From an uncultured Planctomycetia bacterium (GTDB lineage Bacteria > Omnitrophota > Gorgyraeia > Duberdicusellales > 4484-171), in NCBI GenBank assembly GCA_964536195.1, contig CAZHVO010000002.1, positions 1 to 51,189 on the forward strand: a DNA stretch of 51,189 nucleotides, written 5' to 3'. Below the pieces are notes generated by a model. The model was not told the DNA's origin. It made no database searches and worked only from the letters and a program-made list of their open reading frames with translations. This document shows, in pieces, positions 22,449 through 24,937 of the stretch; positions within the stretch are counted from its first letter, which is position 1; every line of letters starts with the position of its first letter. Made by a program: the position numbers and the translations under genes.

Positions 22449-23942
22449 CTAGAACCCATACCAATAGTTAGCTAAAGGTTTGGAGTCTGTAGACTGGTCT
22501 GAAATGATATTTTTAAGGCGGGTATATTCTAAAAATCCCTGGTAACCTAATTCTTTACCAAACCCACTTTGTTTAAATCCCCCATAAGGCAACTCATTGA
22601 AAAACATTCCATAGGTATTAATCCAAATTGTACCTGACGATACCTTTTCGGCTAACTTTTCTGCTTTAGATACATCTTTGCTCCAGATACAAGCTGCTAA
22701 AGCAAAAGAAGAGTTATTAGCAAGGACAATCGCTTCTTGGGGTGAAGAAAATTTGCTTAAAGTGGCTACTGGGCCAAAAATTTCCTCTTGGAATATAGCC
22801 GAATCGGGTTTTGCTCCTTCGAATACTGTCGGTTCAAAAAAGAATCCTTTTTTTAATGCTTCATCTTGAGGGATCCTACCTCCACAGAGTAACCTTAAAC
22901 CCTCTCTCTGAGCTTTATCAACATAAGAAATAACCCTATCCCGTTGGAATCTGGAAGCAAGCGGCCCAATTTGACTTTGAAAATCTAAACAATCCCCTAT
23001 CTTTATCTTCTTAGTTTTTTCAACAAACTGATCACGAAAATTATCATAAATAATCTGATCTATCAATATTCTTGAGGTAGCAGTGCACATCTGGCCTTGA
23101 TTTAAGAATATTGAACATAATGAGCTATTTACCGCTGCTTCTAAGTCAGCATCTTTTAAAATTATACTCGCTGACTTACCACCGAGTTCCATGATTAATT
23201 TTTTAACACTCTTAGTAGAATATTCTAAAATCTTCTTACCAACCGCATTGGAACCGGTAAAAGAAATCATATCTACTAAATCACTAGAACAAATAATTTT
23301 TCCTACTTCCTCTCCCGGACCAGGAATAACATTTATTACACCCTTAGGCACACCTACCTCATCAGCTATCCTGCCTAGCTCTAAAGCAGTTAAAGGCGTT
23401 AAGCTTGAAGGTTTTAGAATAACCGTATTACCAGCAGCAAGGGCCTGAGCCATTTTCCAGGAAGCTATTAGCAACGGATAATTCCAAGGAATAATTAAAC
23501 CTACTACACCTCTAGGCTCTCTTAAAAGATTTGCTTTCACCTTTGCTATCTTTGATTGAATATCTTGAATTTTTCCGGTTAAATATTTCTCTAAATTATT
23601 AGCAAAATATTCAAAAGTTGCTGCTGAGGAAGGTATATCCATAAAAGTTGTCTCTTTAATCGGTTTACCTGAGTTTAAACTCTCAAGCTCGGCTAATTCT
23701 TTAGCCTTGGAGAGAATGGTTTGCGATAATTTAAGAAGGAGATTCTTTCTCTCCAGTAAACTCATATCTTTCCACGGACCTTTATCAAAAGCATTCCGTG
23801 CAGATTCAACTGCCAACTTTGCATCTTTGGCGCTGGCCATACAAGCAACAGCAATAGTCTCACCATTTGAAGGATTAATTATATTCTTCTTATGCTTTGA
23901 ATCTTTAAACTGACCATTTATTAATAAGCCATATTTTTTCAT
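22449..23942 (-). CDS. NAD(P)-dependent aldehyde dehydrogenase
   Basis: Catalytic ELGGKSA and NQGQMCTATSR, with the typical PWNYPL and FTGS motifs. Its start overlaps the stop of the upstream aldolase gene by 4 nt. Confidence 0.9.
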   Translation of the reverse strand: MKKYGLLINGQFKDSKHKKNIINPSNGETIAVACMASAKDAKLAVESARNAFDKGPWKDMSLLERKNLLLKLSQTILSKAKELAELESLNSGKPIKETTFMDIPSSAATFEYFANNLEKYLTGKIQDIQSKIAKVKANLLREPRGVVGLIIPWNYPLLIASWKMAQALAAGNTVILKPSSLTPLTALELGRIADEVGVPKGVINVIPGPGEEVGKIICSSDLVDMISFTGSNAVGKKILEYSTKSVKKLIMELGGKSASIILKDADLEAAVNSSLCSIFLNQGQMCTATSRILIDQIIYDNFRDQFVEKTKKIKIGDCLDFQSQIGPLASRFQRDRVISYVDKAQREGLRLLCGGRIPQDEALKKGFFFEPTVFEGAKPDSAIFQEEIFGPVATLSKFSSPQEAIVLANNSSFALAACIWSKDVSKAEKLAEKVSSGTIWINTYGMFFNELPYGGFKQSGFGKELGYQGFLEYTRLKNIISDQSTDSKPLANYWYGF

Positions 23943-24937
23943 TTAAATTTTACCTGTTTGAATATCTCAAATAATCTACTAAAAGGAACATACCAACGTG
24001 AAAGTTGGCCTAATTGTCCATCTAAATTCATCTTACCTTGAGTAACTGCCACAAACGGATCAAGACTACCCAAGAAAACCTGCTTCCAGATATCGTTTGA
24101 TGCTGAAATAATAAAAGGGGCATCTGAATCGTAATCTAGTTTTACAATTCTTCCCTTTTCAAAATTAAATCTATAAGCTTTATCACTTTCCGTTGAAGTA
24201 ATAGCCAGTTTAACGGTTAAATCTAATTCTTCTCCCTTATTAGCTATAAGCTGATCTTTATTGACTAAATCTACTATTGCCTGAACATGCTCAGGGGAAA
24301 ACATTGGGTAAGCTTTATCAGCCTCTAATTTATTCTTTAACGGTTGGTCTAGCTCATCCAATATATTTTTATCAAAAAGCCTGGCTAAAGCAGCTGTACG
24401 CACTGCCTCTTCCAGAGCTTCAATCAAAGCTAAAGCCTCATTAAAATTATCGGCCATAGCAATCGCACCATGATTCTTAAGCACTACTAAATTATTAACT
24501 TTTAAAGCTTGAATCACTTCATCAAGTTCTGTAACTGTTGGCGTATCTTGGCTTACTACCGGAACTTCTCCTAAATAAAACTTAGTTTCAAAGCTAAGGG
24601 CTTTTAATTTTGAACTAACCGCAAAGTAACCATTGATTAAAGGTGGATGACAATGAACTACTACTTTTGAAGGAAAATTCTTATAGACAAGGCTATGCAA
24701 AGGTAATTCTGAACTTGGATGCTTACCCTCTTGAGAATTTTTAGTACTAAGGCTTACCTTTATAATATCTTCCGGTCTAAGGCTTCCTAAAAAGGTTCCT
24801 CCGGCAGTAATAAGAATACTTTCATCATCTAACTTTGCACTTATATTGCCTGATTTTGCCACTGCCAGGCCTTGAGAATATAGACGCTTGCCTACTCTTA
24901 TAATCTCATTCTTTAAAATGCTCTCTTGATCAGCCAT
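23939..24937 (-). CDS. Class II aldolase/adducin-family domain fused to a C-terminal SCP2-like lipid-binding domain
   Basis: The N-terminal ~190 aa have SGNISAK, LHSLVY, VVHCHPP and KNHGAIA, the Zn-His pattern of FucA/MtnB-like enzymes. The C-terminal ~110 aa (IWKQVFLGSLDPFVAVTQGKMNLDGQLGQLSRW) resemble SCP2. Confidence 0.7.
   Translation of the reverse strand: MADQESILKNEIIRVGKRLYSQGLAVAKSGNISAKLDDESILITAGGTFLGSLRPEDIIKVSLSTKNSQEGKHPSSELPLHSLVYKNFPSKVVVHCHPPLINGYFAVSSKLKALSFETKFYLGEVPVVSQDTPTVTELDEVIQALKVNNLVVLKNHGAIAMADNFNEALALIEALEEAVRTAALARLFDKNILDELDQPLKNKLEADKAYPMFSPEHVQAIVDLVNKDQLIANKGEELDLTVKLAITSTESDKAYRFNFEKGRIVKLDYDSDAPFIISASNDIWKQVFLGSLDPFVAVTQGKMNLDGQLGQLSRWYVPFSRLFEIFKQVKFK

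Follow-up and report, generated by a model that had tools for sequence, protein, structure and literature searches.

Class II aldolases are textbook enzymes of small sugars and SCP2 domains textbook holders of lipids; what, then, would a protein that joins the two act upon? The question is raised by a gene on the minus strand at 23939–24937 of a 51,189-nucleotide (nt) stretch of contig CAZHVO010000002.1 (assembly GCA_964536195.1; this whole stretch is hereafter called the window), from an uncultured bacterium assigned by GTDB to the Omnitrophota. The gene, an ATG-to-TGA open reading frame (ORF) of 332 amino acids (aa) supported by Pfam and by homologues of the same architecture (24–87% identical to the window protein), had been described in an earlier note as a class II aldolase with the histidine pattern of the zinc enzymes, extended by a region resembling SCP2, and on this basis the true substrate had been argued to bear a hydrophobic group. 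Our analysis confirms the observation and lends the interpretation partial support. We tentatively propose, with a little under even confidence, that the protein is a 5-substituted 5-deoxy-pentulose-1-phosphate aldolase, in which the SCP2 domain holds the hydrophobic substituent or the aldehyde product.

An aldolase domain followed by an SCP2 fold

The catalytic domain comprises residues 1–190 (24368–24937, minus strand), as delimited by Pfam, alignments and fold match. Pfam Aldolase_II (PF00596) spans residues 11–181 with an E-value of 5e-35 (121.5 bits against a cut-off of 22.2). Conservation was read from two alignments, A1, made of 27 full-length homologues with 35–87% identity, and A3, made of 26 more divergent ones reaching down to 30%. 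The metal ligands H95, H97 and H156 and the catalytic E77, which correspond to H92, H94, H155 and E73 of FucA, are invariant in the 26–27 homologues of both alignments. At the phosphate site, formed by G30-N31, T44 and S75-S76, G30 and N31 are likewise invariant, and T44 and S75 vary solely to S and T. A Foldseek search with the N-terminal half returned YgbL, FucA and DrdA at an E-value of ~1e-14 with template modelling (TM) scores of 0.76–0.85 (target-normalised), the DrdA structures 6btd and 6btg being among the top fold matches.

None of the NCBIfam equivalog cut-offs was reached, and thus the aldolase domain appears from its profile scores to be a subfamily of its own. The generic aldolase model gave 114 bits, the OtnC decarboxylase model 95, FucA_Meth 79 (78.9 against a cut-off of 250) and MtnB 77; the FucA equivalog TIGR01086 gave 45.7 bits against 400 and the MtnB model TIGR03328 59.9–60.5 against 137. 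The domain also lacks the second acid/base of the FucA type, a tyrosine (Tyr113) provided by the neighbouring subunit, and has in its position the invariant E117 (codon 24587–24589, minus strand; hidden Markov model (HMM) alignment to 4c24). The same glutamate, together with the subsequent YLxEVPV motif, is found in the Thermus thermophilus protein 2fk5, a structural-genomics 'FucA', so that the E117-type proteins and 2fk5 may form a distinct, uncharacterised class II aldolase subfamily; this comparison comprises HMM alignments to FucA and to 2fk5 alone.

The C-terminal domain comprises residues 210–332 (23942–24310, minus strand) and was identified by profile match, model and fold search. Pfam SCP2 (PF02036) scores 20.0 bits on the protein against a cut-off of 21.3, and 22.3 bits in a six-frame scan of the genome; in homologues it reaches 24–28 bits, exceeding the threshold in roughly half of the closer ones and in most that are more distant, and in the ESM Atlas it is carried by 58–91% of the members of the fusion clusters. 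The T. thermophilus SCP2 structures 1wfr and 2cx7 are matched, with E-values of 2–3e-5, by a profile built from the last 130 residues of the protein. Folded alone, the domain reaches a predicted local distance difference test (pLDDT) of 91.2 and a predicted TM score (pTM) of 0.82. The best match of this model in the PDB is 2cx7, with a TM score of 0.82 and a root mean square deviation of 1.8 Å, followed by UbiJ-SCP2, the C-terminal domains of alkylsulfatases and the SCP-2L domain of MFE-2; the top 44 listed PDB matches (ranks 1–46) are all SCP2-type folds. The VFLGSLDPFVAVTQGKMNLDGQLGQLSRW motif, in which the resemblance had been seen, is present and is the best conserved part of the domain, whose invariant or near-invariant residues are F288, Q300, G307, S214, N226, A297, Y316 and F323. 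The region thus models as SCP2, and as judged from the predicted structure it is a genuine SCP2 fold.

Between both domains lies a variable linker (residues 191–209; 24311–24367, minus strand), predicted as one helix followed by a loop of low confidence (AlphaFold pLDDT 66–68); the full-length AlphaFold model has a pLDDT of 87.9 and a pTM of 0.60. Mean pairwise identity is 0.59 in the SCP2 domain, 0.54 in the aldolase domain and 0.25 in the linker, from which the SCP2 domain appears to be conserved about as strongly as the catalytic domain, with the linker free to vary. In FucA a mobile C-terminal tail caps the aldehyde pocket. The alignment of the window protein to FucA ends at residue 192, and by analogy with what is generally known of FucA the SCP2 domain would sit in the place of this tail.

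Gene neighbourhood and distribution of the fusion

The ATG of the fusion gene overlaps by 8 nt the stop of an upstream gene encoding an MtnA-like sugar-1-phosphate isomerase paralogue (24930–25880, minus strand; Pfam IF-2B), and its TGA overlaps as ATGA the start of a downstream aldehyde dehydrogenase (ALDH) gene (22449–23942, minus strand; Pfam Aldedh, E-value 1e-162). From these overlaps the three genes are translationally coupled. The remaining members of the module lie further upstream. A paralogue of the hexameric-type nucleoside phosphorylases (36066–36800, minus strand; PNP_UDP_1) would provide the first step of the module, and a FadD-like AMP-forming acyl ligase (36797–38431, minus strand; AMP-binding) the last. 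The phosphorylase scores 98 bits with the DeoD-type model, below cut-off, and gives a weak match to HpnG (43.5 bits); its best PDB match is the 5'-methylthioadenosine (MTA) phosphorylase of S. solfataricus (1jds), which is hexameric and accepts MTA. The ligase scores 408 bits with the long-chain-fatty-acid-CoA ligase model against 221 with the acetate-CoA ligase model, and is thus by score of the long- or medium-chain type, not of the acetate type.

The genome has its own salvage enzymes elsewhere. A true MTAP (TIGR01694, 323 bits against a cut-off of 275) and a true MtnA (TIGR00512, 418 bits against 279) are encoded on other contigs, and the isomerase of the cluster reaches only 218 bits with the latter model. 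Since true MTAP and MtnA exist elsewhere and the cluster copies fall under the equivalog cut-offs, the phosphorylase and isomerase of the cluster are, as judged by these scores, remodelled extra copies and not housekeeping enzymes.

The cluster as a whole spans 22449–38431, with all of its genes on the minus strand. Listed from its upper coordinate it contains the FadD-like ligase, the nucleoside phosphorylase, a 91-aa ORF (35772–36047; no NCBIfam match was found), an ApbA-like reductase, a TIGR04076 tandem protein, a ketosynthase (KS) pair and an acyl carrier protein (ACP; 31434–31667), and then a PF04199 cyclase, an SRPBCC protein, a major facilitator superfamily (MFS) protein, a short-chain dehydrogenase/reductase (SDR), a B12-binding radical S-adenosylmethionine (SAM) enzyme, an Amidohydro_2 protein that also belongs to the cluster (25877–26767), the MtnA-like isomerase, the aldolase-SCP2 fusion and the ALDH. 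The genes from the SDR to the 91-aa ORF occupy 28263–36047 and were assigned by domain matches and by synteny in 16 loci; they include a type II polyketide synthase (PKS)-like set. The B12 radical-SAM enzyme (26771–28231) is of the class B type and co-occurs with the fusion. An RlmN gene (21412–22440, minus strand; 390 bits against a cut-off of 290) adjoins the cluster, and RlmN adjoins the module also in several other lineages, including that of the divergent metagenome locus L113. Outside the window, on contig C3 of the same genome, a run of ~20 radical-SAM domains was observed at ~12.7–36.5 kb, with single ORFs that hold three or four such domains (1296, 938, 735 and 706 aa).

In a sample of 151 Omnitrophota genomes the full-length fusion is present in 24 and the PKS-type cyclase in 25, with 23 genomes common to both; the orthologue of the B12 radical-SAM enzyme is present in 22, every one of them bearing the fusion. 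The module is confined in this sample to genomes, about 22–24 in number, that also have the B12 radical-SAM enzyme and the PKS-like set. The other 127 genomes are devoid of the full-length fusion, and 103 of the 151 give no class II aldolase match at all. Genomes that carry the cluster have two MtnA-type genes, and most of the phylum has one. When the cluster proteins were searched by tblastn against 16 fetched Omnitrophota loci, the same gene set was recovered in reshuffled order, with phosphorylase, isomerase, aldolase-SCP2, ALDH and ligase usually in one block; the ALDH adjoins the fusion in 15 of the 16 and lies ~6.6 kb downstream in the other (L026). In every module-bearing genome examined the SCP2 domain is present on the aldolase.

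More distant context was provided by nine metagenome loci with relatives of the homologue P0160, 34–41% identical to the window protein; a metagenome scan with the homologue P0158 as query found no relative. Five of the nine (L110–L114) have the fusion directly followed by ALDH, together with ligase, B12 radical-SAM enzyme, phosphorylase and isomerase, and in L110, L111 and L113 the B12 radical-SAM gene lies among those of the module. In L115 a phosphorylase, an isomerase and a weak match to the ligase are present, with no ALDH, and in L116, L117 and L119 RsmB follows the fusion in place of ALDH. The sister module of L113 (3462–18283) runs in the order PadR, methyltransferase, ligase, B12 radical-SAM enzyme, phosphorylase, isomerase, small ORF, aldolase-SCP2, ALDH, MMPL, LolA-like/DUF1329, DUF1302 and a second B12 radical-SAM enzyme; no KS or cyclase was found within 10 kb of it, and MMPL, LolA-like/DUF1329 and DUF1302 resemble by their families a set of the lipid-export type. 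Because the divergent loci keep the nucleoside module and the B12 enzyme, and L113 has them with neither KS nor cyclase, the fusion is tied first to this module and this enzyme, and within the Omnitrophota also to the PKS-like set. In all contexts inspected, namely the 16 Omnitrophota and nine divergent loci, the fusion belongs to this one module next to a B12 radical-SAM enzyme and not to an operon for small sugars; a wide occurrence in small-sugar contexts would have counted against the substrate suggested by the earlier note.

Searching the SCP2 domain against 1.84 billion representatives gave 72 proteins; most of the full-length ones are of ~330 aa with the domain C-terminal, and many of the others are shorter pieces. 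Seven divergent ~330-aa proteins were scanned, all of which match Aldolase_II and six of which also match SCP2. In a collection of species-representative genomes 344 loci encode a relative, and the best 80 of these 344 are all in metagenome-assembled genomes (MAGs) of Omnitrophota type. The ESM Atlas has eight clusters with the aldolase and SCP2 pair, mostly from Omnitrophota, one being labelled Candidatus Binatota, which we take as a lead only. Several MAGs (L031, L034, L045, L048 and others) are labelled 'uncultured Planctomycetales/Planctomycetia' and have closest relatives that are all labelled Omnitrophota, so these labels may be unreliable. Many relatives have an ORF of ~150 aa between the MtnA-like and the aldolase-SCP2 genes which resembles the C-terminal half of IF-2B/MtnA (L113:9527–9985, L117:9537–10004, G147:C1:214263–214652; Pfam IF-2B E-value 4e-6 in L117); the window has no such ORF, and there the two genes overlap. 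Finally, a 694-aa protein on a 3.4-kb ENA contig (P0156) has B12-binding, radical-SAM, partial Aldolase_II and SCP2 regions in one frame, and is either a real radical-SAM/aldolase-SCP2 fusion or a chimera due to assembly or frameshift.

Candidate substrates and reactions

In the route that we propose, the phosphorylase would strip the base from a 5'-substituted 5'-deoxy-adenosine-type nucleoside, the MtnA-like paralogue would convert the resulting sugar-1-phosphate to the pentulose-1-phosphate, and the aldolase domain would split the C3–C4 bond, giving dihydroxyacetone phosphate (DHAP) and an aldehyde bearing the 5-substituent. This aldehyde would be oxidised by the ALDH to an acid, which would then be activated by the FadD-like ligase, while the SCP2 domain would hold and hand on a hydrophobic ligand, either the 5-substituent or the aldehyde. 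The enzyme order and the intact catalytic and phosphate-site residues point to a pentulose-1-phosphate aldolase of the DHAP-shunt type. The best single reading is that the 5-substituent or the aldehyde is hydrophobic, because an SCP2 domain replaces the tail, the phosphorylase and isomerase are remodelled paralogues, the ligase is FadD-like and the neighbours include lipid-export genes (the MMPL and LolA-like exporters of the sister module); the co-occurrence with the PKS-like set speaks for it as well.

Several observations weigh against this proposal. The genome, of 1.17 Mb, has 44 radical-SAM (PF04055) matches, so the disposal of 5'-deoxyadenosine is a real need, and the fusion is its sole class II aldolase. 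We identified no candidate for the formation of a 5'-C-substituted adenosine; the known B12-binding class B radical-SAM enzymes, to which the neighbouring one belongs by type, methylate or rearrange and are not known to adenosylate. A SAM halogenase (fluorinase/chlorinase) was considered as the source of a 5'-modified adenosine and rejected, there being no PF01887 match in the genome, at 91.7% completeness. Many of the invariant residues of the SCP2 domain (S214, N226, Q300) are polar, which fits a specific interface or ligand equally with a lipid tunnel, and the glutamate at the Tyr113 position leaves the exact chemistry uncertain. Domain identities, catalytic and phosphate-site residues, gene coupling, co-occurrence and paralogy can be read directly; what the enzyme acts on, in which direction it works and what the SCP2 domain binds we infer. 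The earlier claim of a hydrophobic substrate stands in part, with by-product disposal still a live explanation.

According to this explanation, the main rival and in our view somewhat less likely than our own proposal, the module is a plain DHAP shunt that takes 5'-deoxyadenosine or MTA from the B12 radical-SAM and other radical-SAM enzymes to DHAP and acetaldehyde, and the latter to acetate and acetyl-CoA; the SCP2 domain would have a non-substrate role, as a tether to a membrane or lipid-handling complex, as a presenter of the lipid substrate of the radical-SAM enzyme (as UbiJ), or as a sensor of the end product. The enzyme order is indeed identical to that of the phosphorylase variant of the DHAP shunt (PMC6079011, PMC10986504). 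The radical-SAM load of so small a genome and the absence of any second class II aldolase agree with it, as do the module of L113, which accompanies a B12 radical-SAM enzyme even though neither KS nor cyclase lies within 10 kb, and the place of UbiJ-SCP2 among the best fold matches. However, with true MTAP and MtnA at hand just an aldolase would be needed, and the cluster nevertheless retains a divergent phosphorylase and isomerase; also speaking against it are the 127 of 151 Omnitrophota genomes that have no full-length fusion and the 103 with no class II aldolase match. The ligase is nearer to the fatty- and aryl-acid ligases than to acetate-CoA ligase, and an SCP2 domain conserved like the catalytic domain would be left with no defined role.

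Two further alternatives are made less likely by the conserved ALDH. It is improbable that the N-terminal domain is not an aldolase and carries out instead, on the same sugar phosphate, an MtnB-type dehydration, an epimerisation or a decarboxylation. MtnB/APIP uses a catalytic glutamate in the region of the Tyr113 position, where the window protein has its invariant E117, and the sub-threshold NCBIfam scores for aldolase, OtnC decarboxylase, FucA and MtnB are similar (114, 95, 79 and 77 bits); the ATGA-coupled ALDH, adjacent to the fusion in 15 of 16 Omnitrophota and 5 of 9 divergent loci, argues nonetheless for an aldehyde product, the MtnB model remains far below its cut-off (60 against 137 bits), and neither acireductone dioxygenase (ARD) nor a RuBisCO-like protein was found in the genome, at 91.7% completeness. 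Even more improbable is a synthetic direction, in which DHAP would be condensed with a hydrophobic aldehyde held by the SCP2 domain, and isomerase and phosphorylase would go on to assemble a sugar or nucleoside linked to a lipid. In its favour, class II aldolases work in both directions and tolerate various aldehyde partners (PMC6079011), and a greasy aldehyde could be presented by an SCP2 domain; the conserved neighbouring ALDH and ligase, however, fit the consumption of an aldehyde and not its supply, and among the enzymes of the module none was recognised as a reductase that forms an aldehyde. The idea of a decarboxylase of aromatic acids that acts on the polyketide itself was set aside, the sugar-phosphate site being conserved.

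Returning to the hydrophobic pentulose-1-phosphate as substrate, the fusion suggests that a known recycling route for SAM by-products has been re-used for a greasy molecule. A more specific version, which we consider unlikely, is that the radical-SAM enzyme joins the 5'-deoxyadenosyl carbon to a lipophilic acceptor (polyketide or lipid), and that the adduct is then cut back by phosphorylase, isomerase and SCP2-guided aldolase to a -CH2-CHO arm of two ribose carbons, which would be oxidised and activated as a thioester. If true, this specific version would amount to a new route to build or prime a lipid or polyketide, and would give SCP2 a new role, that of holding the substrate for a sugar-phosphate aldolase. 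The broader proposal has published precedents: the fluoroacetate route has the same enzyme order and ends in an acid (PMC3999930), and in salinosporamide a SAM-derived ribose feeds a PKS unit (PMC9516700).

The conserved fusion links the metabolism of nucleosides and SAM by-products to the chemistry of lipids or polyketides, and does so in a phylum from which no model organism is in culture. We found no paper in the literature that combines a class II aldolase with SCP2, nor Omnitrophota with a type II PKS. Should the substrate be held by the SCP2 domain, the ribose of SAM would become a carbon source of a lipophilic product, widening the uses of SAM, and an aldolase that accepts bulky hydrophobic aldehydes would be of interest in biocatalysis. 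If by-product disposal is all that the module does, it would still be, among shunts of this kind, the first to run on as far as a thioester and to be joined physically to a domain that binds lipids.

Comparison with known systems

One close counterpart is Ald2/DrdA, the 5-deoxyribulose-1-phosphate/methylthioribulose-1-phosphate aldolase (EC 4.1.2.62), which has in common with the window protein the fold, the histidine triad and the catalytic glutamate, and also the neighbouring genes, which encode an isomerase of the MtnA type together with a phosphorylase or a kinase. Ald2/DrdA is, however, a single-domain protein of ~200–220 aa, in contrast to the 332 aa with a conserved SCP2 domain found here; the window module adds an ALDH and a FadD-like ligase, has a B12 radical-SAM enzyme and a PKS-like set as fixed neighbours, and is additional to true MTAP and MtnA. 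The fluoroacetate pathway of Streptomyces cattleya and Nocardia brasiliensis (FlB phosphorylase, isomerase, aldolase and aldehyde dehydrogenase) follows a common four-step logic and turns a 5'-modified adenosine into a 2-substituted acetic acid (PMC3999930), and the window module differs from it in the ligase, the SCP2 domain, the PKS-like and radical-SAM context and the lack of a PF01887 match in the genome. With FucA of E. coli and S. pneumoniae the likeness extends to the fold (TM ~0.8, target-normalised), the equivalents of E73, H92, H94 and H155 and the residues of the phosphate site; the window protein departs from it by the invariant glutamate in place of Tyr113, by a linker and SCP2 domain in place of the C-terminal tail, and by a context that is no fucose operon.

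The pairing of a radical-SAM enzyme with a PNP_UDP_1-family protein recalls HpnH/HpnG (adenosylhopane) and MqnE/MqnB (aminofutalosine), where a radical-SAM reaction is followed by removal of adenine from a C5'-carbon-linked adenosine. Neither HpnH nor MqnE belongs to the B12-binding class B, and their routes proceed with no trimming by isomerase, aldolase and ALDH. As for the C-terminal domain, MFE-2/SCPx, the alkylsulfatases SdsA1/Pisa1 and UbiJ, all of them among the fold matches, likewise have an SCP2 fold placed C-terminally on, or acting with, an enzyme of a hydrophobic substrate; in none of them is the partner enzyme a sugar-phosphate aldolase, and it is in this that the fusion of the window stands apart.

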